Of a stretch of DNA of 64,000 nt, positions 32,953 to 61,847 are shown piece by piece. The number at the start of each line of letters is the position of its first letter. The first letter of the stretch is position 1. The DNA lies in NCBI GenBank assembly GCA_028715175.1, contig JAQUSJ010000001.1, forward strand, positions 276,550-340,549, read 5' to 3'. The DNA is from Candidatus Daviesbacteria bacterium. GTDB taxonomy: Bacteria > Patescibacteriota > Microgenomatia > Daviesbacterales > UBA10151. The translations under genes were made by a program, and so were the position numbers. Under the pieces are notes generated by a model that worked only from the letters and a program-made list of their open reading frames with translations, had not been told where the DNA came from and searched no databases.

Positions 32953-34654
32953 AATTATTGGTTCACATAAAGAATTTATCATTGGATTGCTGCTGACTTT
33001 GTCTTTGCTCTGGCCGCTTTTCACGGCTCCTTACTTTACCCATCATGATGACGTACAAGTGATTAGAATTTATGAGATGGATAAATGCATTAAAGATCAT
33101 CAAATACCATGCCGGTGGGTGCCGGATTTGGGCGGTTTATACGGCTATCCGATTTTTAACTATTATGCACCCCTGCCTTATTACTTTGGTGAATTGGTTT
33201 ATTTGTTCACTAACAATCTGTTAATTTCGGCAAAGGCAATGTTTATTATCAGTTTTCTGGGATCTTATGTTTTTATGTATCTTTTAGCATCAAAGCTGTG
33301 GGGTAAAAAAGGAGGTTCTCTAGCTGCTGTTTTTTTTGAGTTTGCACCTTACCATGCGCTTGATTTTTACGTCAGGGGAGCGATGGGTGAGTTATGGGGA
33401 TTAATGCTTTTTCCTGCTATCTTTTGGGCTTTGATAAGATTGGAAGAGAAAATAAATATTCTCCGTCTTTTACTGTTGGCAATATCCATTGCTGCGCTCG
33501 TAGTCTCACACAATCTTTCAGCCTTAATCTTTTTGCCACTGGTCTTAATTTGGGCGGCTATAATATTTTTTAGAAGAAAAAATGCCAAATTTTTATGGTT
33601 CTCCTTAGGAGGAATAATTCTTGCTGTGGCTTTATCTTCATTTTATTTATTTCCGGCCTTGTTTGAAAAGAATTTTGTTCATCTTGGAACTACAATTGGA
33701 GGATATTTTTCATATACGGAACATTTTAAGGGATTTAGAAAATTATTCTTGGATAGGTCTTGGGGGTATGATTCATCAATCAGGGAAGTTCCGGGAGGAG
33801 AGAAAGATGGACTTTCTTATCAGATAGGATGGGTACATCTTGCGGGATGGATTTTATCATTGGTTGCGGCAAAGATATTATGGAAAAAGAATAAAAATTT
33901 GAGCATTATAATCGGATTTTCTTCATTTGTGATTTTACTTTCAATTTTTATGATCAATCCAAGATCGGAATTTGTCTGGAAGCTGATTGATCCGTTAAAA
34001 TACCTGCAATTTCCCTGGCGATTTTTGCTGCTTGTGGTATTTTTTATATCATTTGTTTCAGGTAGTATTTTCCTGGCTGATTTCAAGCGCAAAAATGTTT
34101 TGTGGGCATTTTTAATTATTGCGGTTGTTGTTTTTAATTTTTCCTATTTTAGGCCGGCAAAATTTATTAAAACAAATGACGAAAAACGCTTAAGCGGTAA
34201 AGATTGGGATACACAGATAAAGCGTTCAATTTTTGATTATTTGCCTATTTATGCAAAAGAACCGCCGGCAGAACTTGCTACTTCAAGGTACCAAATTTTA
34301 ACGGGCGACAGTCGGATTTTTGATTTTCAAGAGGGGACAAATTGGATTACTTTTAAAACGCAAACGCAGACACACACAATTATCCGCTTATCGCAGTATT
34401 ATTTTCCCGATTGGAAGGTATTTGTAGATCAAAAAGAAGTAAAAGTTGAATATAAAAACAACAGTTTAGGTTTAATGACTATTATCTTGGGTAAAGGCTC
34501 TCATGAAATTACAGCAAGGCTTTATGACACTCAGATTAGATGTCTTTCAAATTTTATCACTTTAATAGGGTTTGCAGTTAGTGCAATATTATTCTTAATT
34601 TCTTTCCAAAGAGTCCGTCGATGGATGTCATATTACAGGAAAAGAATGAATTAA
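32945..34654 (+). CDS. YfhO-like GT-C family membrane glycosyltransferase (paralog)
   Basis: IPCRWVPDLGGLYGYPIFNYYAPLPYYFGE and C-terminal YYFPDWKVFVDQKEV, collinear with 31291-32952. 8-nt start/stop overlap. Confidence 0.55.
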   Translation: MYKIIGSHKEFIIGLLLTLSLLWPLFTAPYFTHHDDVQVIRIYEMDKCIKDHQIPCRWVPDLGGLYGYPIFNYYAPLPYYFGELVYLFTNNLLISAKAMFIISFLGSYVFMYLLASKLWGKKGGSLAAVFFEFAPYHALDFYVRGAMGELWGLMLFPAIFWALIRLEEKINILRLLLLAISIAALVVSHNLSALIFLPLVLIWAAIIFFRRKNAKFLWFSLGGIILAVALSSFYLFPALFEKNFVHLGTTIGGYFSYTEHFKGFRKLFLDRSWGYDSSIREVPGGEKDGLSYQIGWVHLAGWILSLVAAKILWKKNKNLSIIIGFSSFVILLSIFMINPRSEFVWKLIDPLKYLQFPWRFLLLVVFFISFVSGSIFLADFKRKNVLWAFLIIAVVVFNFSYFRPAKFIKTNDEKRLSGKDWDTQIKRSIFDYLPIYAKEPPAELATSRYQILTGDSRIFDFQEGTNWITFKTQTQTHTIIRLSQYYFPDWKVFVDQKEVKVEYKNNSLGLMTIILGKGSHEITARLYDTQIRCLSNFITLIGFAVSAILFLISFQRVRRWMSYYRKRMN

Positions 34655-36135
34655 AGACTATGGATGAAAGCGTTGAACAGATTGATCCGACTAAAGAGCT
34701 GACTACGGAAATTATTAAAACGCGAGCTGTTAAAGGCGCCGCAATTTTGACTGGAAGAATGGTTCTAATGCAGGGAATATCCTTTTTTTCAATGGCTCTT
34801 TTGACAGCCTTTCTTTCCCCGGCAGAATTCGGGGTTTATTTTGTCGTGTCGGCAGTTAAGAATTTCCTGGCTTATTTTGGCGATATTGGTTTTGCTCCGG
34901 CTTTAATCCAGAAACAAGAGAAGCCAACCGATCTTGAATTAAAAACTATATTTACTGCCCAACAGCTGCTTATTTTAATATTATTGGGAATAGGTTTTCT
35001 GCTTACTTTTTTAATACAAAATATTTATAATTTAAATCAGGCAGCAATTTATTTATTTTGGGCACTTCTTTTTTCTTTGTTTTTTTCATCGTTAAAAACG
35101 ATTCCTACTGTTTTACTGGAGAGAAAGTTAGAATTTAATAAATGGGTAATTCCGCAAATCATTGAAAATATAATTTTTAATTTAACAGCCGTAACTTTGG
35201 CCTGGAAAGGATTCGGAGTCACAAGCTATACTGTTGCCGTACTTTTATCCGGTTTCATAGGTCTTTTCGTTACATATATAGTTCAGCCCTGGCTTCCCGG
35301 AATTGCATTTTCGGTTAAATCTTTTAAGTCAATATTAAAGTTTGGCATCCCCTATCAAGCAAATACACTTCTTGCGATGGTGAAAGATGACGGTATGACG
35401 CTTTTTTTAGGAGGGGTATTAGGTCCTTCCGGTGTCGGATTTTTGGGGTGGGCTCAGAAATGGGCTTATGCGCCACTCCGGTTTTTTATGGATCAGGTAA
35501 TCAAGGTGACTTTTCCGGCTTTTTCAAGATTGCAGGATAACAGAAAAGACTTGTCAGACTTAGTTTCGAAGTCTATTTTTTTCATCTGTATTTTGGTTTT
35601 TCCATCTCTCGTGATGCTGGTTCTGGTGACACCCAGTTTAGTGCAGGTAATACCAAAGTATATTAAATGGAGTCCTGCCGTTTTTGCGCTTTCGGTTTTA
35701 ACAATAAATTCCGGTTTGGCAGCAATAACCACTCCATTGACGAATACTCTGAATGCTATCGGCAAAATAACTCTGACTTTTAAGTTGATGATTATGTGGA
35801 CTATATTAACTTGGATTTTTGTTCCAGCGCTTGCTGTGCTTTATGGGGTTAATGGCGCAGCCGTAGGGTTTGCTATTGTCGGATTAAGCTCTGTTATAGC
35901 TTTATATCTGGTTTCAAAACATGTTGATATAAACTATTTGCAAAGTGTTGGAAAACCGGTTCTCGCGTCAATTTTCATGGGAATTTGCGTATTTATTATC
36001 AGTAGTCTTTTTTCCGTGTCTTGGCAGCAGATAATAGGTATGGTTGTTGCAGGTTTGATTTCCTATTCTTTGACTATTTTTATGCTTGAACCAAAGCTGC
36101 CGCTTTTAATTAAAAATCAATTCAGAAGAAAATAA
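34621..36135 (+). CDS. Wzx-like oligosaccharide flippase (MOP/polysaccharide biosynthesis protein family)
   Basis: 504 aa, ~14 TM helices. N-terminal KGAAILTGRMVLMQGISFFSMALLTAFLSPAEFGVYFVV pattern of Wzx/PST flippases. Confidence 0.65.
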   Translation: MDVILQEKNELKTMDESVEQIDPTKELTTEIIKTRAVKGAAILTGRMVLMQGISFFSMALLTAFLSPAEFGVYFVVSAVKNFLAYFGDIGFAPALIQKQEKPTDLELKTIFTAQQLLILILLGIGFLLTFLIQNIYNLNQAAIYLFWALLFSLFFSSLKTIPTVLLERKLEFNKWVIPQIIENIIFNLTAVTLAWKGFGVTSYTVAVLLSGFIGLFVTYIVQPWLPGIAFSVKSFKSILKFGIPYQANTLLAMVKDDGMTLFLGGVLGPSGVGFLGWAQKWAYAPLRFFMDQVIKVTFPAFSRLQDNRKDLSDLVSKSIFFICILVFPSLVMLVLVTPSLVQVIPKYIKWSPAVFALSVLTINSGLAAITTPLTNTLNAIGKITLTFKLMIMWTILTWIFVPALAVLYGVNGAAVGFAIVGLSSVIALYLVSKHVDINYLQSVGKPVLASIFMGICVFIISSLFSVSWQQIIGMVVAGLISYSLTIFMLEPKLPLLIKNQFRRK

Positions 36136-39100
36136 TGAAAAAAATTATTTTTTTATTGCTATCTTTTTTTTCCATAATTTTTTCCGCACAAACTGTTGCA
36201 GCAAGTAATTCATTCATTTCAATCGTAAATCCTGTTAGAGGAAACGACTTTTGGGATTTAAAGGATCAAAGCGTAGAAACCGCAGTTTTGGGTCAAATTG
36301 AGATATTAAACAAATCTAATTTACCAGCGACCTGGCTGCTGCGATTTGATGTGCTTAATAATGAAAATATTATTAATCAGTTAAAAGATAGGACGCTTGA
36401 TGAAAAAGGATTATTCCTGGAAGTGACTCAAGCCTGGACAGCTCAAGCAAAGATTCAATATCGTAAGTTAGATATTTGGCATGCAGCCGGCAGCGCTTTT
36501 TTGACCGGTTACGAAAGGGAACAAAGAGGAAAACTGATCGATGTTGCTTTTGAAAAATTTAAAAATATCTTTGGTCAATATCCTGTCTCAGTTGGCGCAT
36601 GGTGGATTGATGCTTATTCGCTGGATTATATGCAAAAAAAATACGACATCACCTCAGCGTTAATTGTGGCCGATCAATACTCAACAGATAATTATCAAAT
36701 TTGGGGTCAATATTTTGGGACTCCTTATTATCCAGGCAAGAATAACGCGCTTCATCCTGCCGGTAACTTAGAAAACAAACTTGATGTTGTAATGATGCAG
36801 TGGGCCACAAGAGATCCGGTGAATGGTTATGGAAACGGGGTAACGGAAAGTACTTTTTCCGTACAGGCCAATGATTATATTGATTATCACGATTTAGACA
36901 CGAAGTATTTTTCTTCCTTAATTGACATATACACAAAACAAAAATTTAACCAGTTTGCTCACATGGTAGTTGGTTTAGAAAATTCTTATTCCTGGAGAAA
37001 ATATGCAGATGAATATAAAAAACAAATTGAAGTATTGATTGAAAAAAGAGATTCCAATCAGCTTTCGGTTATCACGATGAAAGATTTTGCCGGTTGGTAT
37101 AAAAAAACTTTCCCAAAACTTTCTCCTGAACAATTAATTGTTGCAGATGACCCGCTGGGGAGTTTTAGAAAAGCTGTTTGGTTTATGAACCCGTATTACA
37201 GAGCGGGATGGTTTTTAAATTCTGATGGAAGCGTTTTTAGAGAGATTAGACAATATGTTGATGGAGAAGAGGAATTATGCTTTAGGACTAGATGTGACAA
37301 TGTTAACTTTGCAACTTCTGCTACCAGAGTTTTGGACGACGTCAGCTTTAGCAGCAAATGGGTGATAGATGAAGGGAAAATTAGTAATTCTAAAGTAGAA
37401 AGAAAAGGGGATGATTTTTTAATCAGTTATAAAAATGAAGCGGGAAATGTAAGACATATAGAATTTTTGCCCCGTGATATAAGTTTAGACGGAAATATTT
37501 TTTCTATTGATGCGGCCATATTAAATGCAATCAAAACAGGGAGTACAGTAACTAAGAATGCCGCAGCGGGGGGACAAACGCTTGATTGGTCCCTTTTTTC
37601 CGTCATATTAAAGCTTGCGGAATTTTTACTATTTTTATTGCTTGTCACTTTTATTCCGGGATTTGTTTTAAGTCGTAACTTTTTGAAAAAGGATTCCCTT
37701 TTTCTGCGGTTATTTATATCCGGATCAGTCGGGTTTGTCGTGCTTACTTTGCTTTTCTATATAACTAGTTTGTTGAAAATTAGGCCATTGGTTTTTGCTT
37801 ATATTTTAATAAGCCTGATTTTGTATGTCCGCTTTAAACCTCCTTTTGTCATCCTGAGAGAAACGAAGGATCTAATCATTAGATTTTTCCCCAGTCAAAG
37901 GCGGCCTCAGAATGACAGGGTTGGGTGGTTTAATTTAATATTGATTGCAATTATTTTGGCCGGAACCATATTCCAAGCAATGCCTACTTTTAAAAGCGGT
38001 TTAAATTTTTCCTATGGTATCGGACTTTGGGGACCTAATACTCATGATGGTGTTTGGCATATAGCTTTAATAAATCAGTTGGTAAAGTCTGTTCCGCCTG
38101 AAAACCCTGTCTATTCCGGTGTTACCTTAAAGAATTATCACTTCTTTTATGATCTTTTAGTGGCTGTTACAAATTACTTATCCGGACTACCTGTTTCCGA
38201 TTTAGTCTTTAGATTTTATCCGGTAATTTTCTCTTTGATGTTGGGATTGGGTTCTTATTATCTTATCATGAAACTTTTTAAAAATAGAATGGAGGAGATG
38301 CAGGTAAAAGTTGCCGCAGTATTCAGCTTATATTTTATTTATTTTGCCGGCAGTTTTGGATGGATTGTGGAATTTTTGCGGGAGGGTCACTTTGGTGGGG
38401 AATCGGCTTTTTGGGCCAATCAGGCAGTTTCTTTTAATTTGAATCCGCCGTTTGCGGTTTCTTTGGTTATTCTTATTTCCCTGTTTCATATCTTGTTTTC
38501 AAATACCAAAGGAATAGTGCCGAATGCCGTTGCGATCATTATGGTTGGTACTCTTGCCAGTTTTAAATCATACACCGGAATTTTAGTATTAGGAGCTTTG
38601 TGTTTTGTAGCAGCGGTAAGGATTTTAAGAAATAAAGATTTTACTTGTTTTTGGACTGTGCTTTTTTCCATTTTGGTCACTGCCTTATTATTTTTGTCTA
38701 ATTTTCAGGCGAGTTCCGCGCTGATTATTTTTGTGCCGTTTTGGTTTATTCATTCAATGGTTGATTCTCCGGATCGGGTTGGTTGGGTTAGGTTATCTTT
38801 AGCCAGGACAACCTCTCAAGCGCTGGAACAGTGGCCGAAATTTATTATAGCGGAAACATTAAGCCTCCTGCTTTTTATATTTGGGAATTTAGGATTGCGG
38901 TTTTTAAGTTTAGGGTATCTGCTGAAGATAAAAGAAATTTTTAAAAATGACACTTTACTATTTATTTCTACAACGGCAATTTTGTCAAGCGTAATACCCA
39001 TTCTTTTTATACAGTCAGGTAATCCTTGGAATACAATTCAATTTTTCTACCCCTTTTTGTATATCAGCGCGCTTTTTAGCGGACCGGTTATTGCTTTTTT

Positions 39101-39623
39101 GGTTTTTAGACTGAATAAAATACTGGTTTTTAGTTTTGTATGCCTGGTTCTTATTATTGCGCCGATTAACTCACTTGTTACAGCCGGCGGGTATTTGAGT
39201 AAAACACCACATGCTTTTATTTCTTCAAAAGAACTTGCGGGTTTGCAATTTTTAGCTAGTGAGCCTAAGGGAACAGTGTTAACTTATCCTTATGACGGGA
39301 AATTAAAAACTAAAGTTGCGGAACCTTGGCCGATCCTCGTTTATGATAGTACGGCTTATGTTTCAGCTTTTTCTAAAAAAGCGGGCTATTTGGAAGATGA
39401 ACCGCAGAATCAAATCTTGCTGACAGATTATAAAAAGAGACTGGTTGCTTCAAAGGATTTTTTCTTGAAACCTGTTTCCGAAGGATCAAAATTTCTGCGC
39501 GATAATAATATAAAATATATTTACATACCAAAAATATACGACATAAGACTTGATGAGGGCGCCCAAGAGGTAAAAAATATTTTCGAAAATGAAGAAATAA
39601 TTATTTATCAAGTAAATCAATGA
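36135..39623 (+). CDS. Giant bipartite protein: signal peptide + ~490-aa secreted domain of unknown function fused to a ~650-aa GT-C-like polytopic membrane domain with C-terminal extracytoplasmic domain
   Basis: MKKIIFLLLSFFSIIFSAQTVAA signal. No TM helix until ~aa 500, then >14 helices. Loop GLWGPNTHDGVWHIALINQL. Stop overlaps the next start (ATGA). Confidence 0.5.
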   Translation: MKKIIFLLLSFFSIIFSAQTVAASNSFISIVNPVRGNDFWDLKDQSVETAVLGQIEILNKSNLPATWLLRFDVLNNENIINQLKDRTLDEKGLFLEVTQAWTAQAKIQYRKLDIWHAAGSAFLTGYEREQRGKLIDVAFEKFKNIFGQYPVSVGAWWIDAYSLDYMQKKYDITSALIVADQYSTDNYQIWGQYFGTPYYPGKNNALHPAGNLENKLDVVMMQWATRDPVNGYGNGVTESTFSVQANDYIDYHDLDTKYFSSLIDIYTKQKFNQFAHMVVGLENSYSWRKYADEYKKQIEVLIEKRDSNQLSVITMKDFAGWYKKTFPKLSPEQLIVADDPLGSFRKAVWFMNPYYRAGWFLNSDGSVFREIRQYVDGEEELCFRTRCDNVNFATSATRVLDDVSFSSKWVIDEGKISNSKVERKGDDFLISYKNEAGNVRHIEFLPRDISLDGNIFSIDAAILNAIKTGSTVTKNAAAGGQTLDWSLFSVILKLAEFLLFLLLVTFIPGFVLSRNFLKKDSLFLRLFISGSVGFVVLTLLFYITSLLKIRPLVFAYILISLILYVRFKPPFVILRETKDLIIRFFPSQRRPQNDRVGWFNLILIAIILAGTIFQAMPTFKSGLNFSYGIGLWGPNTHDGVWHIALINQLVKSVPPENPVYSGVTLKNYHFFYDLLVAVTNYLSGLPVSDLVFRFYPVIFSLMLGLGSYYLIMKLFKNRMEEMQVKVAAVFSLYFIYFAGSFGWIVEFLREGHFGGESAFWANQAVSFNLNPPFAVSLVILISLFHILFSNTKGIVPNAVAIIMVGTLASFKSYTGILVLGALCFVAAVRILRNKDFTCFWTVLFSILVTALLFLSNFQASSALIIFVPFWFIHSMVDSPDRVGWVRLSLARTTSQALEQWPKFIIAETLSLLLFIFGNLGLRFLSLGYLLKIKEIFKNDTLLFISTTAILSSVIPILFIQSGNPWNTIQFFYPFLYISALFSGPVIAFLVFRLNKILVFSFVCLVLIIAPINSLVTAGGYLSKTPHAFISSKELAGLQFLASEPKGTVLTYPYDGKLKTKVAEPWPILVYDSTAYVSAFSKKAGYLEDEPQNQILLTDYKKRLVASKDFFLKPVSEGSKFLRDNNIKYIYIPKIYDIRLDEGAQEVKNIFENEEIIIYQVNQ

Positions 39624-41248
39624 AACCTAAATTAATATTGTTTTGTCTTGTAATAGTTGGATTACTCTTAAGAGTAATATTCATTAACAATAGCCCGCCC
39701 TCATTATATGGAGACGAGTTAACCATAACTCTGGATGCTTATTCCTTATTAAAAACAGGTCAAGATCAGTTAGGAAACTTACTGCCGCTAACCTTTTCTA
39801 TGGGGGCCGGCCGGCCAGCCGGTTATGTGTATGGGTCAATACCGTTTGTGGCTATCTTTGGTTCGTCTGCGTTAGGTATAAGAGCTCTTTCGATTTTGTC
39901 AGGCATAGGGATAATTATTCTTTTATATTATATAGGTAGGAAACTATTTTCTGGGAAGGTTGGGATAGCAGCTGCTTTTATTGGATCTGTTTCTCCATGG
40001 GATATATCTTTAAGCAGAGGCGGTTTTGAGGCTCATTTTGCATTGTTTCTTGTACTACTGGGAACTTATCTTTTTATTCAAGCAAAGAATACACCCGTAT
40101 TTTATATAATTTCTGCATTGAGTTTTGGGTTAACACTGCATACTTATCCAACATATAAAGTAAGTCTACTGCTATTTTTACCATTACTTCTGTGGTATCA
40201 AGGTGACCTAAAAAGGGTTTTAAACAATTATAGAAAATATTTTTTAACTGGAGTTTGTATATTTATATTCTTCAGTGGTTTATCTTTAATCCAAACTTTT
40301 ACAGGAGGTTCGGAAGCAAGATTTTTAGGTATAAATATATTTGCACAGGATAAATTAAAAGATACAATCGTGCAAAAGATAAACTTCGAAAGACAAATAA
40401 CACAGTTACCTCAGTCTATCTCTAAATATTTTCATAACAAACCTATTGAGTATGCAAAAGTATTCAGTGAAAATTATCTGCAGAATTTTTCAATTGATTT
40501 TCTAATTCTACACGGTGATCGAAACCCAAGACACAATATGGCAACAATGGGGGAGATATATTTTATAGAATTAGTATTAATTTTTATTGGGTTTATTGCT
40601 TCCTGGTACAAAGAAAAAAGGACAAAAATATTTTTGTTTTCCTGGTTATTTCTAGCTCCGATTCCTGCAGCAATTATTGATACTCCGCATGCGCTAAGAA
40701 GTGCTTTTATGTTCCCTCCTCTTGTACTTTTTTCCGCGGTAGGGCTTATAACAGTTTTTAATCACAAAAATAAGTTATTTTCAGTTTTAATTCTAATGAT
40801 TTTTATTTTTCAATTCATATTCTTTGTCCAAAAACTATATTTCCTGGCTCCAAAAGAATACAGCAACTTTTGGTCATATTCTGCAAAACTTGCCTCACAA
40901 ATTGCTAAAAATAATAAAGACAAATTTACTTATGTGATTTTATCTGACAGGATCGATAATATAGAGTTTGCTTATCCGGTTTATGCAAAAATTGATCCCA
41001 ATATAATAATTTCTCAAAATCAAAATAAAACTTTACTCAATGGCAGCAAATTTAAAAAATTTGACAACATTTATATTGGATATATTCCTGAAAGCCGGGT
41101 AGAGAAATTTATTGATTCACTGGAGAGGTCTATGTTGTATATTAGTTCGGCAGGCGATAAGGAATTTCTTAGTAACCCGGAATTAATTGATGGCCTGGAC
41201 GGTCAGAAGGCGCTAGTTTTAGAAAAAAGAGCTTTAAGTAATGAATAA
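39620..41248 (+). CDS. GT-C glycosyltransferase, PMT/ArnT-like subfamily B paralog
   Basis: LYGDELTITLDAYSLLKTGQDQLGNLLPLTF loop after TM1; IRALSILSG..SPWDISLSRGGFEA; mid-protein FLILHGDRNPRHNMATMGEIYF motif. Confidence 0.65.
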   Translation: MKPKLILFCLVIVGLLLRVIFINNSPPSLYGDELTITLDAYSLLKTGQDQLGNLLPLTFSMGAGRPAGYVYGSIPFVAIFGSSALGIRALSILSGIGIIILLYYIGRKLFSGKVGIAAAFIGSVSPWDISLSRGGFEAHFALFLVLLGTYLFIQAKNTPVFYIISALSFGLTLHTYPTYKVSLLLFLPLLLWYQGDLKRVLNNYRKYFLTGVCIFIFFSGLSLIQTFTGGSEARFLGINIFAQDKLKDTIVQKINFERQITQLPQSISKYFHNKPIEYAKVFSENYLQNFSIDFLILHGDRNPRHNMATMGEIYFIELVLIFIGFIASWYKEKRTKIFLFSWLFLAPIPAAIIDTPHALRSAFMFPPLVLFSAVGLITVFNHKNKLFSVLILMIFIFQFIFFVQKLYFLAPKEYSNFWSYSAKLASQIAKNNKDKFTYVILSDRIDNIEFAYPVYAKIDPNIIISQNQNKTLLNGSKFKKFDNIYIGYIPESRVEKFIDSLERSMLYISSAGDKEFLSNPELIDGLDGQKALVLEKRALSNE

Positions 41249-42173
41249 AATAAAATATTTACTGCTTATTTTAATCTCAGTTACTGCTTTATCTTTTAGA
41301 TTTTATATTAATTATTTCATACCCGTCAACCAACAGATTAATTTATTATTTATACTTTTAGGTCTGTTTAATTTAATATTATTATTTTGTATAATTCAAA
41401 GGCTAGCCAATTATAAAATTGGGTTGTTGGCAGCTCTACTATACGCAATATCCCCTTGGACAGCATACCTTGAATTGGTATCCAGTCCATATATCTTTTT
41501 ACTTTCTTCTATATTATTTCTATATCTGGGAATTCAAATATTTAATGTCAGCAAAGGAATTTTCTTGCTATTGATCATTGCGATCGGAGGTTTTTTTCTA
41601 TACAGATATAATCAAATCACTGTTTTTTCCAATATAGGTTTAATCAATGATGTAAATAGTTTTAGAGGTGAAACGAATCAAACTTTTCTCTCTCCTTTAG
41701 GAAAGATTATCGAAAACCGTTATATATATTTAAGCGAGCATTTAACATCTAATATCCTTAAACAATTTACTCCGGCAACTTATTTTACAAATCAGGTTCG
41801 ATTACTGGGGTTTTCTAATTCTTCGCCAATATATTTAGGCTTTATAACTCCTTTCTTATTTGGTGTTTTGATATCGGTAAGATTAATACCAAGGAAGAGA
41901 ATTTCAGAAATAATAGCCGGAGCTTTATTTATATTGCCTTCAATACTATCTAAAGACTCGCCTGATTTATCCCGCTTAATCTTAATTTCTCCAATAATTT
42001 TTTTTGTAATAAGTATAGGTTTATATGAATTTATTCTAAATTACAGGAAAAAAGTATTCCTTTTTTTGCTGTTTCTTACGGTGTTTATGGTGGTATTGCA
42101 GTTTCTGATAACTATCTCCGATATAGCGGTTAGAGAACCTGTAAGATTACAGATGTTTTTGGATCAAAAATAA
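41241..42173 (+). CDS. N-terminally truncated GT-C-like membrane protein (lacks the DE catalytic loop)
   Basis: 310 aa. Goes from TM1 directly into LAALLYAISPWTAYLE (the second-motif region of subfamily B). ATYFTNQVRLLGFSNSSPIYLGFITPFLFG resembles the mid-protein module. Confidence 0.45.
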   Translation: MNKIKYLLLILISVTALSFRFYINYFIPVNQQINLLFILLGLFNLILLFCIIQRLANYKIGLLAALLYAISPWTAYLELVSSPYIFLLSSILFLYLGIQIFNVSKGIFLLLIIAIGGFFLYRYNQITVFSNIGLINDVNSFRGETNQTFLSPLGKIIENRYIYLSEHLTSNILKQFTPATYFTNQVRLLGFSNSSPIYLGFITPFLFGVLISVRLIPRKRISEIIAGALFILPSILSKDSPDLSRLILISPIIFFVISIGLYEFILNYRKKVFLFLLFLTVFMVVLQFLITISDIAVREPVRLQMFLDQK

Positions 42174-46667: not shown

Positions 46668-47384
46668 ATGGGAAAACTCAATATACGAAGTATTCTTGCT
46701 CAAAATAAAGCTTTATTAGTTGTTATACTGATAGTCTTCACAACTCCCTGGACCTGGAAAATTTTAAATGACAATCTTCTCTTGTGTTTATCACTAATCA
46801 TAATTACTGTTATTTTTGTTAAACTATTGTTGAATAATAAGCGGAATACCAGATTAATCTTATTGTTTTGTTCTATCTTTGTGGTAGTTTCTGCAGTGAA
46901 TGTGCAACTGGGTTTCGATCGGAATCTCCGTAAACTTAATGTTAATGAAGAGGTCCAGTTGAACGAGAGGCACAATTATTTCGCCAAAGAATTAAGAGAA
47001 TTCTTTTTGAATAAGTACTCATTAAATTATTATAAAAATTACAATCTTTCTTTCTATAAATTTCAACGGAATTTTTTTTCTGCGTTAGATCCTAATTTAT
47101 ATTTTTTTGCCGGCCATCCAAGAGAAAGAGCCGGAATAAATGAATTTGAAAAATTTCAATCATTGTATCTGATATTCTTTATTATTGGTATAGTCTATAG
47201 TTTGCAACTGCAATCATTACTGGCGATCGCGTATTTACTGGTTGCTGCTTTGATTAATGGATTCATCGCGCCAACATATCGACTTGGACCGATTTTGTTT
47301 TTCCCTTTTGTAACTGCACTAACAGCACTAGGTATCATGTATTCTGTAGCTCTTTTGAAGTCTTTGATTAGGAAAATACACTAA
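46668..47384 (+). CDS. Mini membrane protein homologous to the internal 'NPR-loop + TM' module of the subfamily B GT-C enzymes
   Basis: 238 aa: N-terminal 2 TM, then LDPNLYFFAGHPRERAGINEF (compare large-protein FLFISGDQNPRNSVKTQGEFY), then 3 TM. Paralog at 49019/49112-49690. Confidence 0.5.
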   Translation: MGKLNIRSILAQNKALLVVILIVFTTPWTWKILNDNLLLCLSLIIITVIFVKLLLNNKRNTRLILLFCSIFVVVSAVNVQLGFDRNLRKLNVNEEVQLNERHNYFAKELREFFLNKYSLNYYKNYNLSFYKFQRNFFSALDPNLYFFAGHPRERAGINEFEKFQSLYLIFFIIGIVYSLQLQSLLAIAYLLVAALINGFIAPTYRLGPILFFPFVTALTALGIMYSVALLKSLIRKIH

Positions 47385-47385
47385 A

Positions 47386-49020
47386 ATGAGAACGATAAAA
47401 ATAATACTCTTTTTTTCGGTTTTGGCGATTAGTATATTTTTACGTTTTTATCATTTAGATCAATTACCTCCAGGATTAAATGCTGACGAAGCCTCATTAG
47501 GCTATGATGCTTATTCGCTGCTTTTAACCGGTAAAGATCAATACGGAAAAGCTTTTCCGATATTCCTTCGTTCTTTTGGAGCATATCAGTCGCCGCTGTA
47601 TGCATATTTGACTACTGCCCCCATTTTTCTATTTGGCTTATCTATTTTTGCGGTTCGTTTGCTTTCCGCGCTAGCAGGAATTTTAACCGTGTTGATGACA
47701 TTTATAATTATCTATAACAGTAAAGAAAACAATAAATTTTGGCAGGCGCTACTTGCAAGTTTTATAGTTTCTTTTATGCCATGGTCAATCTTTTTTAGCA
47801 GAACAGCGGTTGAGGCGAATTTGGCCCTTTTTTTGGTGGCGGGCGCTGCATATTTTCTGATTAGATCTTTGCGACAACCGGTTTTTTTTATTTACGCCAG
47901 CATTCTTTTGGCGGTTTCAACATATGCTTATCAAGCGCAAAGACTTAGTTCCATTTTATTTCTTTTGGGTTTTACAATAGTTTTCGCAAAGCAATTTCTA
48001 AGCAGGAAGAAAATAGTACTCGTGGGATTAGCTCTAATGTTTATTATTCAAATTCCCCAACTAACTTTGATAAATTCTCAAGCCGGTACCAGAAGATTAG
48101 ATCAGGTTAATTATTTTAGCAAAAATTATTTTGATCAAAATGGAGGAAACTTAAAATCTGTTCTTTTTGGTCAGCAAATCTATATTTTCAATCAATTCTC
48201 AAGCCATTATCTTGCATACTTTTCTCCAAAGAATCTATTTTTTGATCCTGATCCTCAAGAGGGAAGATCTATCCCTGATTTATCTGTCTTTTATGGCTGG
48301 ATGTTTATACCACTGTTATTTGGTTTTAAAGTATTTTGGGAAAAACGTAAAGATCCTACAATTAAAATTTTGCTGCTGTTTATAGCTGTAAGTGTAATTC
48401 CAGCTGCTTTAACAAGGGAACCATTTTATACTTTAAGAGTTTTGCCTTTATTTTGGGTACTATCCATTATTATTTCTTTTGGAGGATTTGAAATTTTATG
48501 CAATCTCCGGTTTAATATTCTTAAAGTTATTTTATTGTTTATTATTTCAACTTTCACTTTTGTAACTCTTTATAACAATTATTTCATATTATTAAAATAT
48601 GAAAGAAGTTCTGAATACGGGTTTCCATATATTGAACTTGCCAAAAAAACCGAAGAGTTAAGTTCTAAAAAATTTGTTGTTGACTTAGAAAGACAGAGCC
48701 AATCTTATATTTGGTTTGCTTTCTTTAAAAAATATGATCCGTATAAATTACAAGATCAGGGAAAAGATGTTTTAAAAAATTATTATAATGCTGCAGACTT
48801 TAATGGTAACAAAGTTATTGGTAATGTGGAAATAAAAGATGATATTTGGAAACAGGAAGAAAATTCTTGCATAAGTGATATTATAGTAGGAGATCTTTTA
48901 GCTGTTTCAGAAGCCGATATTAAAGAGCATGAGTTGCACCGGGAATTTGAGATTCCGGATTTGTCTGGTAAGGTTAAGTTAAAAGCTTATTCAACAAGGG
49001 CGAAAGGAAAATGTTATTAA
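47386..49020 (+). CDS. GT-C glycosyltransferase, PMT/ArnT-like subfamily B paralog
   Basis: LNADEASLGYDAYSLLLTGKDQYGKAFPIFLRSFGAYQSPLYAY; VRLLSALAGIL; YFSPKNLFFDPDPQEGRSIPDLSVFYGW. 544 aa. Confidence 0.7.
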   Translation: MRTIKIILFFSVLAISIFLRFYHLDQLPPGLNADEASLGYDAYSLLLTGKDQYGKAFPIFLRSFGAYQSPLYAYLTTAPIFLFGLSIFAVRLLSALAGILTVLMTFIIIYNSKENNKFWQALLASFIVSFMPWSIFFSRTAVEANLALFLVAGAAYFLIRSLRQPVFFIYASILLAVSTYAYQAQRLSSILFLLGFTIVFAKQFLSRKKIVLVGLALMFIIQIPQLTLINSQAGTRRLDQVNYFSKNYFDQNGGNLKSVLFGQQIYIFNQFSSHYLAYFSPKNLFFDPDPQEGRSIPDLSVFYGWMFIPLLFGFKVFWEKRKDPTIKILLLFIAVSVIPAALTREPFYTLRVLPLFWVLSIIISFGGFEILCNLRFNILKVILLFIISTFTFVTLYNNYFILLKYERSSEYGFPYIELAKKTEELSSKKFVVDLERQSQSYIWFAFFKKYDPYKLQDQGKDVLKNYYNAADFNGNKVIGNVEIKDDIWKQEENSCISDIIVGDLLAVSEADIKEHELHREFEIPDLSGKVKLKAYSTRAKGKCY

Positions 49021-49111
49021 TATAAATAGATTCATACTTATCCATATTTTAGTAATATTATTTAATCCCTGGTGGTGGATAATTATTCAGAAAAATCTTT
49101 GGATTGGTTTA

Positions 49112-49690
49112 TTGGTTTTTGTTCTAAGTCTTGTAGTATTTATATATTTTTGGCAAATTAAATCCAGAAAACTATTGTTATCATTGCTGGTATTGACTGC
49201 GGTTTTATCTTTTATTGCTGTAAAGGGAGCCTTCGACGAAAATCTCTTTCGAAGCTCAGCTTTAGATATACAACAGTATAACAAAAGACATGAATTTTAT
49301 GCCAAGGATCTAGGTAAAATATACACAAATAAATTCTCTTTAACTTACTTTAAAGAATATAATTTTCCTCTTATAAAATTACAACGTAATCTTTTTGCCA
49401 ATTTAGATCCTAATCTATATTTTTTTGCCAGTCATCCGAGAGAGCGGGCGGGCGTTGAAGAGTTTAATAAATACTCACCAATCTTTTTACCATTTTTCTT
49501 AATTGGAGTCTTCTACTCTATATATATTTTATTGCCAAATTTTCTGATTTATGCAATATCTGTTTTGTTATTAAGTTCAATCATCTCTTCTAAATACAAC
49601 CTTGGACCTATACTATTTTTCCCGCTTATTAATTACTTAATTACAGTTGGACTTATTTTATCTTTTAAAAATATTAAGAAGATGATATGA
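49112..49690 (+). CDS. Second mini membrane protein (paralog of 46668-47384); called with a TTG start, but homology continues in frame upstream to 49019 with no canonical start codon
   Basis: LDPNLYFFASHPRERAGVEEF motif. Upstream in-frame translation ..ILVILFNPWWWIIIQKNL.. aligns with VVILIVFTTPWTWKILNDNL of the first copy, but no ATG/GTG/TTG lies between 49019 and 49112. Confidence 0.45.
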   Translation: MVFVLSLVVFIYFWQIKSRKLLLSLLVLTAVLSFIAVKGAFDENLFRSSALDIQQYNKRHEFYAKDLGKIYTNKFSLTYFKEYNFPLIKLQRNLFANLDPNLYFFASHPRERAGVEEFNKYSPIFLPFFLIGVFYSIYILLPNFLIYAISVLLLSSIISSKYNLGPILFFPLINYLITVGLILSFKNIKKMI

Positions 49691-51354
49691 AATATAATCT
49701 AAAGTTAATTGTGATTTTTATTGTAATCATTGTTTTTAGTGCAATTTTAAGATTTTACCAAATAGGTAGTATTCCTCCGGGTTTAACCATAGATGAATCT
49801 TCACAAGGGTATAATGCTTTCTCACTTCTTAATACCGGAAAAGATCGTTACGGTCAGCCTTTTCCTATACTTTTTCGTTTATTTGATTCAATCCAAGTAC
49901 CCTTATACACGTATTTAACCATCGCGCCTATCTACTTTTTCGGAAATTCTATATTTTCAATCCGTTTCATCTCTGCTTTGTCAGGAGTTATTTTAATAGG
50001 TATAACATTCTTGCTATTCATTAATTTTGAAAAGAATAGAAAAAATAATAGCCTAGCTATTATTTCAGCATTAATGGTTGCGATATCACCATGGGCAGTA
50101 TTTTATTCGAGGATTTGTACAGAGGCAAGCTTAGGGGTAACTCTATTTATCTTAAGTATAATGTTTTTTTATTTTTCTTTGAGGCATCGACGTTTATTTC
50201 CTATAGCAACATTTATCTTAGGTTTATCTACTCATGCTTATTACAGTGAGCGGATAATTAGTATTTTGTTCCTAATTGGTTTTATATGGTTGTTTAGAAA
50301 GACGATATTTTTGCAAAGGAGGATATTTATTTTAGGGATAGTTCTTTTTATAATTACTCAGATACCGCATCTTTGGGTTGCAAATTCCGGAGCATTTACT
50401 AGAAGAATTATTCAGGTAAATTACTTTAGTGAACAATTCTTCCAAGAAAACAGTGGCAATCTTCGCAATATACCTCTTGGCAGATTATTATTTATAGTTA
50501 GAGAATTTGTAAGTCAGTATTTGGCCTATTTTTCTCCAAAGAATTTATTTTTCGATCCTGATCCTCAACAAGGTGTACGCTCAATGCCAGATCTTTCTGT
50601 ATTTTACAGTTGGGTGATTATCCCATTTCTCTTTGGATTACGATCATTGATTCTAAATAGATCACTGTCTTTTGTTAAGATATTGATTTTATTGCTTGTG
50701 ATAGGGCCTTTCGCAGCTAGTTTAACCAGAGACCCATTTGCTACTATTCGCGTGCTTGGTTTTCTTTGGGGTATTACTATAACTATTGCTTTTGGTCTGA
50801 ATTATTTATTGGGTATATTTTCTTCTTTTAAGCTTAAACTTTTAACTTTTACTGTAGTTGTTTTATTGTCGTTAATTCAGTTATACCTTGCTTACTTTGT
50901 TCTTCTAAAGTATGAGCGTTCTCATAATTATGGCTATTCATATGTAGAATTACTAAAACAAATTGAACTTATGAGAGATAAACACTTTGTCGTTGATTCT
51001 TCCAGGGAACCAGCAGCAGGAATTATGTTTGCCTTTTTCAAAAAATATGATCCTAATAAATTACAGAAGGATTTAGGACCACTAGTGGTTGGTAGGTATT
51101 ACAGTAGCTTTGATCCTAATGAAATATACATTGTTGATAATATTGAAGCAAGGCCAATTTTCTGGAAAGAAGATGCTTGCAAAAAACAGATTTTAGTAGG
51201 GGATCTATTGGCAATCTCTGATAATCAAGTCAAAGAACATAAGTTAAGTTTTCTTTTTGATATTAAAGATACAGCAGGTGATGTAGTTTTGAAAGCTTAT
51301 GAAACAGATCCTGATATAAAATGTAATTTAAATACAAAAATACTTGTTGAATGA
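49687..51354 (+). CDS. GT-C glycosyltransferase, PMT/ArnT-like subfamily B paralog (closest to 47386-49020)
   Basis: LTIDESSQGYNAFSLLNTGKDRYGQPFPILF; YFSPKNLFFDPDPQQGVRSMPDLSVFYSW; C-terminal domain collinear with 47386-49020. Confidence 0.7.
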   Translation: MKYNLKLIVIFIVIIVFSAILRFYQIGSIPPGLTIDESSQGYNAFSLLNTGKDRYGQPFPILFRLFDSIQVPLYTYLTIAPIYFFGNSIFSIRFISALSGVILIGITFLLFINFEKNRKNNSLAIISALMVAISPWAVFYSRICTEASLGVTLFILSIMFFYFSLRHRRLFPIATFILGLSTHAYYSERIISILFLIGFIWLFRKTIFLQRRIFILGIVLFIITQIPHLWVANSGAFTRRIIQVNYFSEQFFQENSGNLRNIPLGRLLFIVREFVSQYLAYFSPKNLFFDPDPQQGVRSMPDLSVFYSWVIIPFLFGLRSLILNRSLSFVKILILLLVIGPFAASLTRDPFATIRVLGFLWGITITIAFGLNYLLGIFSSFKLKLLTFTVVVLLSLIQLYLAYFVLLKYERSHNYGYSYVELLKQIELMRDKHFVVDSSREPAAGIMFAFFKKYDPNKLQKDLGPLVVGRYYSSFDPNEIYIVDNIEARPIFWKEDACKKQILVGDLLAISDNQVKEHKLSFLFDIKDTAGDVVLKAYETDPDIKCNLNTKILVE

Positions 51355-60215: not shown

Positions 60216-61847
60216 ATGAAGAAAGAAATTAAGATATTATTGTTTTTAATTATTTTATTGGCCACTTTTTTGAGAGTTTATAGGCTGGATCAAGTTCCAC
60301 CATCTTTAAACTGGGATGAAGTAGATGCAGGTTATAATGCATACACTATCGCTAATTGGGGTAGGGATGAATGGGGAAAATTTCTCCCTTTGGTTTTTAC
60401 TTCATTTAGAGACGATAAGCGCCCTATTCATATTTATCTAACAGCACCGGTAGTTAAGTTATTCGGGTTATCTGATTTTACAACCAGACTGCCTGGAGCG
60501 ACCGTAGGCGTTTTAAGCGTAATAGTAATTTTTTACCTTGCGCTAATTTTATTTAAAAGTGATCTTATTGCTTTGCTATCAGCATTATTTTTGGCAATTT
60601 CCCCTTATCATTTACAATTTTCAAGAGGCTTATGGGAGATAAACTTTGCTCTTTTTTTCTTTATGCTGGGGTTGTTACTGTTTTATCTGGCGCTGCAAAA
60701 AAAAGGTTGGTTTATTAGTCTGTCATTTTTTAGTTTCGGATTAAGTATTTTATCTTATCATTCATCAATAATTGTTGTACCTCCCGTAGTTTTCGTGCTT
60801 GTAGTACTTTATATTAAAAAATTACTTAAACTCTCTTTTAATTTCTATTTGGGTTTAAGCTTAATGATTATTCTTGCAATTTTTATAATTTATGACCCAA
60901 GGATTTTGGGGATGGCACGTGTGCAACAAACCCAATTTGGCAAAGATATAATTGAGAAAACTCAGATTTTCCAAAGGACTAAAAATCATATGCTTGGTTT
61001 AGGAGAGATTACTCTTAATCAATATTTTTCGCATTTTACCCCCCAATATCTTTTTATCTCCGGTGATCAAAATCCAAGAAATTCTGTTAAAACACAAGGA
61101 GAATTTTATAAAATTGATGCATTATTTATTTTTGTAGGATTGGTTTGTTTATTATTATTAAGATCAAAAATTTCTGCGGTTGTATTTACATGGTTGTTGC
61201 TTTCTCCTATACCATCCAGTCTGGTTAGTCATGCTCCTAATGCAACCAGGGCGTTATTCATGATGGGCAGTTTAAATCTTATTGCGGCATTTGGTGCAGG
61301 GAATATAATCAACCGGTTTAAAGGTAGCTCTAAAGTTGCTATTTTAGTAGCAATATTAATTTTACTTGGTATTCAATTTTATTCTTATTCTGATTATTAT
61401 TATAATTCTTATCCAAAAAAAGATGCCATTGAATGGCAGTACGGCATGAAACAATCAGCAGAGTTTGTAAAATCTCATCCGGAATACACTCAGGTGTATG
61501 TTACAGACATCCGTTCACAACCGTATATATTTTATCTTTTTTACTTAAAAACTCCTTTACCTGAATATTTAAATGCCGTAGTCTATAATAGATTAGAAGA
61601 AAGTAAAAGTTATAATACAGTTTCGTATTTTGAGAACTTTTATCTTACAGAAGAAGGTCAACGAAAAAGGATTAATTTTTACTTTGGAGGATGGGACAGC
61701 GTGGAAAGCGTCCCGGATAGAAATGTGTTATATGTGCTGAGTCCCAGCCAATATGATGGATTAAGACGTCGTTCATCGTTTGATGTTAAGAAGATAATTT
61801 ACTATCCTGATGGAGGAGTCGCATTTTATCTGGTAAGTGGTATATGA
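60216..61847 (+). CDS. GT-C glycosyltransferase, PMT/ArnT-like subfamily B paralog
   Basis: LNWDEVDAGYNAYTIANWGRDEWGKFLPLVF; TRLPGATVGVL; ISPYHLQFSRGLWE; HFTPQYLFISGDQNPRNSVKTQGEFYKI. Confidence 0.7.
   Translation: MKKEIKILLFLIILLATFLRVYRLDQVPPSLNWDEVDAGYNAYTIANWGRDEWGKFLPLVFTSFRDDKRPIHIYLTAPVVKLFGLSDFTTRLPGATVGVLSVIVIFYLALILFKSDLIALLSALFLAISPYHLQFSRGLWEINFALFFFMLGLLLFYLALQKKGWFISLSFFSFGLSILSYHSSIIVVPPVVFVLVVLYIKKLLKLSFNFYLGLSLMIILAIFIIYDPRILGMARVQQTQFGKDIIEKTQIFQRTKNHMLGLGEITLNQYFSHFTPQYLFISGDQNPRNSVKTQGEFYKIDALFIFVGLVCLLLLRSKISAVVFTWLLLSPIPSSLVSHAPNATRALFMMGSLNLIAAFGAGNIINRFKGSSKVAILVAILILLGIQFYSYSDYYYNSYPKKDAIEWQYGMKQSAEFVKSHPEYTQVYVTDIRSQPYIFYLFYLKTPLPEYLNAVVYNRLEESKSYNTVSYFENFYLTEEGQRKRINFYFGGWDSVESVPDRNVLYVLSPSQYDGLRRRSSFDVKKIIYYPDGGVAFYLVSGI

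Follow-up and report, generated by a model that had tools for sequence, protein, structure and literature searches.

In every domain of life, GT-C glycosyltransferases serve to build cell envelopes and glycoproteins; the parts of the fold that are understood least are the long central loop and the variable membrane module. A 64-kb stretch of DNA from Candidatus Daviesbacteria (Microgenomates, candidate phyla radiation), analysed as a whole and referred to below as the window, contains two genes for small membrane proteins related to this central part, mini1 and mini2, each placed directly before a gene for a full-sized GT-C enzyme. The locus raises the question of what these mini-proteins do beside the enzymes, and how the second of them can be produced when its reading frame has lost the start codon of its orthologs. 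According to our analysis, with a probability of roughly 60%, mini-protein and GT-C enzyme form a translationally coupled two-gene module in Microgenomates, in which the mini-protein is a non-catalytic partner of the enzyme and mini2 is still made at a low level from an ATA or ATT codon. The genes and motifs of the two cassettes are as follows (TM, transmembrane; aa, amino acids):

46668..47384, + strand: mini1, 238 aa, ATG start, six predicted TM helices, member of a stand-alone GT-C-derived family
47088..47126, + strand: loop motif of mini1, D141-N-L-Y-F-F-A-G-H-P-R-E153 (DPNLYFFAGHPRE)
47386..49020, + strand: GT-C enzyme A, partner of mini1, 544 aa, PMT_2, Asp34-Glu35 motif, TAA stop at 49018-49020
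49022..49690, + strand: full-length frame of mini2, 222 codons, TGA stop at 49688-49690, six predicted TM helices
49112..49690, + strand: mini2 as read from its first canonical start (TTG), 192 aa
49406..49444, + strand: loop motif of mini2, D129-P-N-L-Y-F-F-A-S-H-P-R-E141, invariant or nearly invariant columns in a 90-sequence alignment
49687..51354, + strand: GT-C enzyme B, partner of mini2, 555 aa, PMT_2, ArnT-like fold

An earlier inspection of the letters and open reading frames (the sequence-only reading) had described this region as a duplicated two-gene cassette with paralogous mini-proteins and closely related GT-C genes, and the comparison of the two halves bears out each part of that description. 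When the translations were aligned, mini1 showed 38% identity over 222 aa (E 1e-48) to the frame 48983..49687, the alignment beginning at codon 49025, that is, 29 codons upstream of the TTG at 49112. Enzymes A and B share 46% identity (E 1e-163) as well as the segment YFSPKNLFFDPDPQ..PDLSVFY, and the ATG of enzyme B overlaps the stop of mini2 (ATGA). In the NCBI records, mini1 is identical to the hypothetical protein PHE48_01805 of a Candidatus Daviesbacteria metagenome-assembled genome (MAG; contig of 743,708 bp). The gene order GT2-GT2-GT4-mini1-GTC-mini2-GTC-GTC-GTC-GT2 is kept in the related loci L001, L002, L003, and L005; L004, L010, L011, and L013 have one cassette only. In close relatives, mini1-type genes pair with enzymes of the 47386 type and mini2-type genes with enzymes of the 49687 type, indicating that the pair was duplicated as a block, and this duplication would predate the divergence of the Daviesbacteria lineages sampled here.

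Regarding the start of mini2, the frame is open from 48983 and lacks ATG, GTG, and TTG alike before 49112; as the sequence-only reading had pointed out, the homologous part of the frame extends upstream of 49112 until it abuts the stop of enzyme A. The positions in this frame at which translation might begin, and the segment between them, are:

49016..49018, + strand: ATT, sharing one base with the upstream TAA, alternative near-cognate start; same in L005
49022..49024, + strand: ATA in place of the ancestral ATG, with one base between it and the upstream stop; same in L005
49022-49111: codons upstream of the first canonical start, encoding for example the peptide FILIHILVILFNPWWWIIIQK
49112..49114, + strand: TTG, first canonical start of the mini2 frame; starting here drops TM1 with NPWWW and the first residues of TM2
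49175..49177, + strand: TTG, start annotated by NCBI (PHE48_01815, P0039; 171 aa); starting here drops TM1 and TM2

A search with the extended mini2 translation returned 162 relatives, and the closest orthologs (70-79% identity, 220-235 aa) covered 96-99% of the extended query. In the protein alignment, the orthologs P0051, P0056, and P0063 start with M-N-R-F where the window reads I-N-R-F, and at the DNA level the window has ATA AAT AGA TT(C) at 49022 where L002, L003, and L004 have ATG AAT AGA TT. The ATA at 49022 is therefore a mutated ancestral ATG, changed from G to A in its third position, and the claim that the canonical start had been lost with an ATA standing in the initiator position proved correct. 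In many orthologs, another ATG lies in frame a few codons farther upstream (MRG.., MKT..). Within 49011..49025, a 7-nucleotide (nt) indel relative to L002 and L003 removed this upstream mini2 ATG and re-created the stop of the GT-C gene, so that the lineage of the window has lost both of the ATGs used by orthologs, one through the indel and the second through the G-to-A change.

Since a single G-to-A difference separates 49022-49024 from ATG, the missing start might be a sequencing or assembly error in the MAG, and it had been suggested beforehand that such an error could restore an ATG near 49020. This suggestion did not survive the comparison with L005, an independently assembled Logan contig (run SRR22315508) from a different sample with about 95% nucleotide identity to the window (92-98% per gene) and the same gene order. 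Despite the roughly 5% divergence, L005 carries the junction TAATATAAATAGATT exactly as in the window, ATA included; the same ATA in a second strain from another sample excludes an assembly error, and the probability left to this explanation is negligible. Exact look-ups of P0039, P0001, and P0333 gave no record of further strains of the ATA lineage, nor were any found in two DNA pattern scans of JGI metagenomes.

The comparison with L005 also shows that mini2 has been under purifying selection since it lost its start. Between the two strains, mini2 differs by 18 synonymous and 13 nonsynonymous substitutions, without indels or stops, and the 222-codon frame is intact in both. The resulting ratio of nonsynonymous to synonymous rates (dN/dS) of 0.18 lies within the range of nine neighbouring genes (0.08-0.26), and all of the divergence (dS about 0.14) arose in the ATA state. 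In addition, of the 53 columns found invariant in 21 orthologs, mini2 has lost none, and it has kept its ATGA overlap with the downstream GT-C gene. A young pseudogene, untranslated since the loss of its ATG and intact only for want of elapsed time, would agree with the lack of ATG, GTG, and TTG codons around the ancestral start position, and the paralog mini1 might compensate for the loss. The ATA, however, predates the split of the strains, the frame is undisrupted, the dN/dS is indistinguishable from that of the nine neighbours rather than near 1, and the ortholog-invariant columns and the overlap are kept, all of which makes a pseudogene very unlikely.

Selection can also be followed in the part of the frame that no canonical start reaches. 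In the 30 codons upstream of the TTG at 49112, two synonymous and three nonsynonymous changes separate the window from L005, against a neutral expectation of 9.2 nonsynonymous changes (Poisson P = 0.019; Fisher one-sided 0.035). The three replacements hit positions that also vary among orthologs, and N-P-W-W-W is intact. Together, these data give a weak but consistent indication that translation still covers the region upstream of 49112.

Since mini2 is under purifying selection, our proposal is that its translation has not ceased. Directly after terminating on the GT-C gene upstream, ribosomes would reinitiate at low level at the ATA (49022) or the ATT (49016), and initiation at either codon would yield the full-length protein. 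Reinitiation is proposed rather than de novo initiation because the ATA lies 1 nt after the stop in a genome without evident Shine-Dalgarno sequences. Among the 38 + strand genes of the window, almost no Shine-Dalgarno-like motifs were found in the 30 nt before the starts. Most of the window genes begin with ATG, and they are tightly packed, many of their junctions consisting of an overlap or of no more than 1-4 nt, an arrangement suggesting that they lean heavily on coupling or on Shine-Dalgarno-independent initiation. Coupling by termination and reinitiation needs an overlap or a very short spacer and has nearly disappeared at about 20 nt (PMC10666635), and the TTG at 49112 is 91 nt away from the upstream stop; this favours the ATA or ATT over the TTG. 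In the protein model predicted by AlphaFold, TM1-TM3 of mini2 are placed in the core of the fold with a predicted local distance difference test score (pLDDT) of 95-99, and the N-P-W-x-W of TM1 is nearly invariant across 90 family members. On these sequence features, initiation at the ATA or ATT through reinitiation appears most likely.

Alternatively, mini2 might be made only in truncated form, from the TTG at 49112 (192 aa) or at 49175 (171 aa), the 30 codons upstream then being a recently orphaned leader that has not yet decayed. The TTG at 49112 is the first canonical start of the frame, and in Escherichia coli TTG initiates at 10-100% of the AUG level, far above ATA (bioRxiv 10.1101/063800); a protein starting at TM2 could also be inserted, presumably with its N-terminus outside, and L005 has gained a further in-frame TTG. 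Against truncation stand the distance of 49112 from the upstream stop, which is too great for coupling, the N-P-W-x-W of TM1, intact in both ATA strains, and the scarcity of replacements in the upstream codons. No Shine-Dalgarno motif was seen before this TTG, and the search for a promoter or terminator in the 49020-49112 gap found nothing above chance. Moreover, no other family member that was checked is truly truncated, the apparently short ones being explained by a missed GTG start. We regard truncation as somewhat unlikely, although not so unlikely as to be neglected.

Several observations weigh against initiation at the ATA or ATT. The codons AUA, AUC, AUU, and CUG initiate at 0.1-3% of the AUG level in E. 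coli, so near-cognate initiation is very inefficient there (bioRxiv 10.1101/063800). The constraint test on the N-terminal 30 codons comprises five substitutions in all. In L005, a TTT-to-TTG change creates a canonical start inside TM1, at the position equivalent to 49061, and the Logan gene caller used this new TTG (P0152, 209 aa); the lineage could thus be shifting to a shorter mini2 protein.

Frameshifting offers no way around the lost start. An out-of-frame ATG at 49011 opens a four-codon reading frame across the GT-C stop (ATG TTA TTA ATA TAA). A programmed frameshift from this ATG and a +1 shift out of the GT-C frame at TAT-TAA were both rejected, since the sequence contains no slippery site. 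A fusion of GT-C and mini-protein made by frameshifting would also be expected to place the N-terminus of the mini-protein on the wrong side of the membrane. A parallel start loss was considered for P0035 (181 aa, 15 contigs) and P0026 (177 aa) and rejected; in both, the callers chose an internal ATG and missed the GTG that forms the second codon of the open frame. Gene callers repeatedly shorten mini-proteins in this way, as seen for mini2 itself (171 aa, NCBI), for the L005 gene at 6001 (209 aa, Logan), and for the genes at 5001 in L006 and in L009. These entries serve as an annotation warning, since the two database versions, that of NCBI and that of Logan from the sister strain, both fall short of the likely 222 aa of mini2.

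In E. coli, infC and pcnB start with AUU. As in these genes, the proposed start of mini2 mismatches AUG in the third position; in mini2 the near-cognate codon stands at the ancestral start, aligned with the ATG and Met1 of the orthologs and shared by L005, in a gene retained under selection. It differs from known near-cognate genes in lying 1 nt after an upstream stop, with no evident Shine-Dalgarno sequence, and AUA is among the rarest annotated starts. The ATA start of mini2 would be a well-documented example of a rare but already known phenomenon. Such a natural case, in which selection maintains a gene deprived of all the canonical starts of its orthologs, should be useful for exploring the limits of reinitiation at near-cognate codons.

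Turning to the nature of the mini-proteins, which have about 225 aa, no family in Pfam or NCBIfam matches them, and a literature search on PMT-type glycosyltransferases of Microgenomates found no paper. An exhaustive profile search, with representatives at 50% identity, yielded 523 clusters at E <= 1e-3 and 140 at E <= 1e-30, nearly all of 200-260 aa and covering the whole profile. Matches in genomes are confined to Daviesbacteria, Woesebacteria, Blackburnbacteria, Collierbacteria, and unclassified Patescibacteria. The invariant residues cluster in N-L-D-P-N-L-Y-F-F-x-S-H-P-R-E-R; in the numbering of mini1 and according to the family alignment, they are D141, N143, L144, Y145, F146, P151, R152, and E153. 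The AlphaFold model of mini2 (pLDDT 92.4; predicted template modelling score, pTM, 0.86) consists of three TM helices, a helical loop of about 80 residues that ends in the HPRER motif, and three further TM helices. The Lys and Arg residues flanking the helices of this model would place both termini in the cytoplasm and the loop outside. As for the proposal that the mini-proteins are either accessory subunits or decaying fragments, the second half can be dismissed in view of 523 clusters that are nearly all full length, the invariant motif residues, and the dN/dS of mini2; the first half fits the gene pairing described below. As far as the searched libraries show, this is an undescribed family, a stand-alone central GT-C module that accompanies one GT-C clade. 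A large unannotated family of this kind would be a natural dissection of the GT-C fold.

Some of the database names attached to these loci need caution. L012, L016, L023, L025, L028-L030, L033, and others, which come from TPA_asm 'binchicken'/co-assembly MAGs, are titled 'uncultured Gammaproteobacteria bacterium'; they carry mini and cassette GT-C loci typical of Microgenomates, and the names look wrong or like placeholders.

The sequence-only reading had also assigned the mini-proteins to the internal loop and TM module of the large GT-C proteins, and profile comparison with hhalign upholds this for their C-terminal part. Against nine GT-C paralogs of the window, the mini family reached a probability of 97.6% (E 4.5e-12), mini columns 129-235 corresponding to GT-C columns 271-381. 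A group of GT-C enzymes that carry HPRER themselves scored higher (98.4%, E 9.4e-15, 33% identity), and the partner clade alone scored lower (71%, E 3.7e-5). The HPRER-bearing enzymes, of 410-440 aa with NLDFGNYFFAGHPRERGG in the central loop, are found in Woesebacteria-like genomes at L037 3533..4765 (PMT_2 E 9e-9), L041 1057..2379, and L043 2530..3822, where the central loop shows the motif NLDFGNYFFxGHPRER. As the mini family is closer to other GT-C clades than to its partner clade, and the partners are full-length enzymes, the mini-protein was not split off from its partner; by profile similarity it derives from a different GT-C, and enzymes of the L037/L041/L043 type are its closest full-length relatives and its likely source. 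The motif FLFISGDQNPRNSVKTQGEFY cited in the sequence-only reading sits in another GT-C gene of the window, 60216..61847.

Demonstrable homology is limited to the C-terminal 105 or so residues, that is, the loop motif and the last three TM helices. Homology of the N-terminal half to GT-C helices 6-8 was considered and rejected, the match to the GT-C profile being not significant (probability 2.3% or less); what remains there is spacing, the helices and loop of the whole mini-protein being collinear with predicted helices 6-11 of the partner model. The PDB likewise gave no significant fold match for the mini model. Both of these results weigh against the explanation preferred here.

When compared to ArnT (5EZM/5F15) and to the PMT_2 enzymes of families GT39-GT83 (PF13231), the loop motif and the last three TM helices of the mini-protein are homologous to the central loop and the helices following it. 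In contrast to ArnT-type enzymes, it has six hydrophobic helices instead of about twelve (full GT-C proteins having some 11-13), no soluble domain in the pLDDT 92 model, no first external loop with Asp-Glu, and no PMT_2 or PMT match at E <= 0.1. Its sole near-invariant Asp, D72, stands at the start of the central loop. The mini-protein thus shares part of the membrane domain of GT-C proteins without their catalytic loop or number of helices. With neither the N-terminal helices that bear the catalytic Asp-Glu loop nor a C-terminal soluble domain, it very probably has no transferase activity of its own.

The adjoining enzymes, on the other hand, are ordinary members of the PMT_2/ArnT group of GT-C proteins. 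Their PMT_2 scores of 26.8 bits (47386..49020) and 38.8 bits (49687..51354, E 1.4e-9) exceed the Pfam cut-off of 26.1. The motif L-x-x-D-E follows TM1 in the full GT-C proteins of the window, all full paralogs have the Asp-Glu external loop, and the pair corresponds to D34-E35 in enzyme A and D36-E37 in enzyme B. The AlphaFold model of enzyme B (pLDDT 84.4, pTM 0.86) comprises some twelve TM helices and a C-terminal alpha/beta domain, with a loop of 79 residues following helix 8, and its best Foldseek matches are the ArnT structures 5F15 and 5EZM (probability 1.0, TM-score 0.53-0.56). In general, GT-C enzymes are composed of a conserved and a variable module (PMC10154233). The partner clade's own version of the central loop, FSPKNLFFDPDPQ..R, is the one most diverged from the loop of the mini-proteins.

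The association of the two genes extends well beyond the window. Among 36 mini genes in 31 loci, 33 have enough downstream sequence to be informative, and in all 33 the next gene encodes a GT-C enzyme of 526-573 aa that, of nine paralogs in the window, matches 47386 or 49687 best; the same split module, which the sequence-only reading had recommended looking for, is therefore present in relatives. The junctions are mostly overlaps of -4, -1, or -11 nt, the -4 and -1 overlaps recurring with the conserved adjacency across lineages, and the gene upstream of the mini gene varies. Short gene overlaps are enriched among the subunits of heteromeric complexes (PMC10666635), and this enrichment, along with the degeneration of the partner clade's own loop, led us to propose a non-catalytic partner subunit. 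The mini-protein would assist the adjacent GT-C enzyme at the side of the lipid-linked donor or the central loop; both the physical partnership and the role of the loop are inferred. The mini-proteins are accordingly a candidate new accessory subunit in bacteria of the candidate phyla radiation. On present evidence, the accessory-subunit proposal and the ATA start are incremental rather than surprising.

Two gene fusions touch on this partnership. In Candidatus Daviesbacteria GW2011_GWA2_42_7 (L024 3971..6217, LCEJ01000003.1), a 748 aa protein joins a mini-protein, up to TM5, in frame to a cassette-type GT-C enzyme from LRFYDLGG onward; the last TM helix of the former and the first of the latter are gone, and the topology is kept. 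This fusion was initially treated as Rosetta-stone proof and then downgraded. It does not recur, which is a further point against a partnership: no other mini-GT-C fusion of about 750 aa was present among the 120 best matches, and the identical GT-C protein exists separately at 565 aa in ENA assemblies (P0294). The fusion may reflect a deletion peculiar to this strain or a fault of the assembly. The second (P0153; L050 1018..2478, Logan SRR22388067) has 486 aa and joins a GT2 domain (E 5e-25) to a complete mini-protein (residues 264-483). The fusion gene, present on one contig of 2.9 kb, overlaps the gene after it, and the topology of the protein is consistent with a cytoplasmic N-terminus. 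Both fusions point toward partnership, but each is a single case.

The GT2-mini fusion would also suit a different role, in which the mini-protein belongs to the same pathway but works in the membrane independently of the GT-C enzyme, for instance by binding or translocating a polyprenyl-phosphate-linked sugar in the manner of GtrA or ArnE/ArnF. GT2 enzymes (43875, 44786) and a GT4 enzyme lie upstream of the mini gene in the operon, and the charged His-Pro-Arg-Glu-Arg loop has been kept at the position of the GT-C central loop, where cationic residues are generally stated to stabilise the (pyro)phosphate leaving group (PMC10154233). Nevertheless, searches of Pfam, NCBIfam, and the PDB revealed no similarity of the mini-protein to any known flippase family, its constant neighbour is the downstream GT-C gene and not the upstream GT2 or GT4 genes, and the fusion is known from one 2.9 kb contig only. 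We consider an independent role unlikely.

The operon does follow a familiar plan. Three-component systems for lipid-linked glycosylation include GtrA-GtrB-GtrV and ArnC-ArnE/F-ArnT. Their logic is the same: a cytoplasmic GT2 enzyme, a small multi-TM protein, and a periplasm-facing GT-C enzyme; the mini-protein is nonetheless unrelated to GtrA and to the EmrE-like ArnE/F. A close parallel for a non-catalytic partner is Pbn1/PIG-X with Gpi14/PIG-M (glycosylphosphatidylinositol mannosyltransferase I; PMC12653191), a small non-catalytic membrane protein dedicated to one GT-C enzyme. There is no kinship in sequence or fold; Pbn1 and PIG-X are not derived from GT-C proteins, unlike the mini-protein, which resembles a GT-C fragment and whose association with the enzyme is deduced from gene pairing.

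A stronger version of the non-catalytic partner proposal can be formulated, in which the mini-proteins are obligate subunits that supply the HPRER donor-phosphate or gating loop in trans to the GT-C clade with the degenerate loop, and mini2 is translated from AUA purely by termination and reinitiation. We hold this version to be quite improbable. If it were true, the module would be a split, heteromeric bacterial GT-C enzyme, with the level of mini2 tied to translation of the preceding GT-C gene.

Finally, the cassettes are embedded in a region that glycosylation genes dominate, with about twenty GT-C paralogs of the PMT_2 or PTPS_related families and several GT2 and GT4 genes in DNA with a guanine plus cytosine content of 30-39%. 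The following genes belong to this setting, numbers without an end coordinate giving the gene position and (-) marking the minus strand:

1664, 9039, 10564, 29755, 31291, 32945, 39620, 42175, 47386, 49687: examples of GT-C paralogs, PMT_2 or PTPS_related
51351, 52952, 55325(-), 57025, 58686, 60216: further GT-C paralogs, PMT_2 or PTPS_related
43875, 44786, 54618, 61844: GT2 genes interleaved with the GT-C paralogs
45590, 62598: GT4 genes interleaved with the GT-C paralogs
26812..28983: GT2-PMT_2 fusion
34621..36135: Wzx-like flippase

The GT-C expansion is very large relative to the small genome; bacteria of the candidate phyla radiation, as seen here, commit some twenty GT-C paralogs to the glycosylation of their surface. 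In the middle of the cluster, an open reading frame of 1162 aa (36135..39623, + strand) matches no Pfam family at E <= 0.001. Another gene, 41241..42173 (+ strand), encodes a reduced GT-C paralog of 310 aa, with a PMT_2 match at residues 29-129 (E 3.7e-6) and the loop motif FTPATYF, without the Asp-Glu external loop after the first helix and without the C-terminal soluble domain. It is kept at the same place in L002 (235..1170) and L004 (2222..3154) and may be another type of GT-C derivative without catalytic function, beside the mini-proteins of this cluster.

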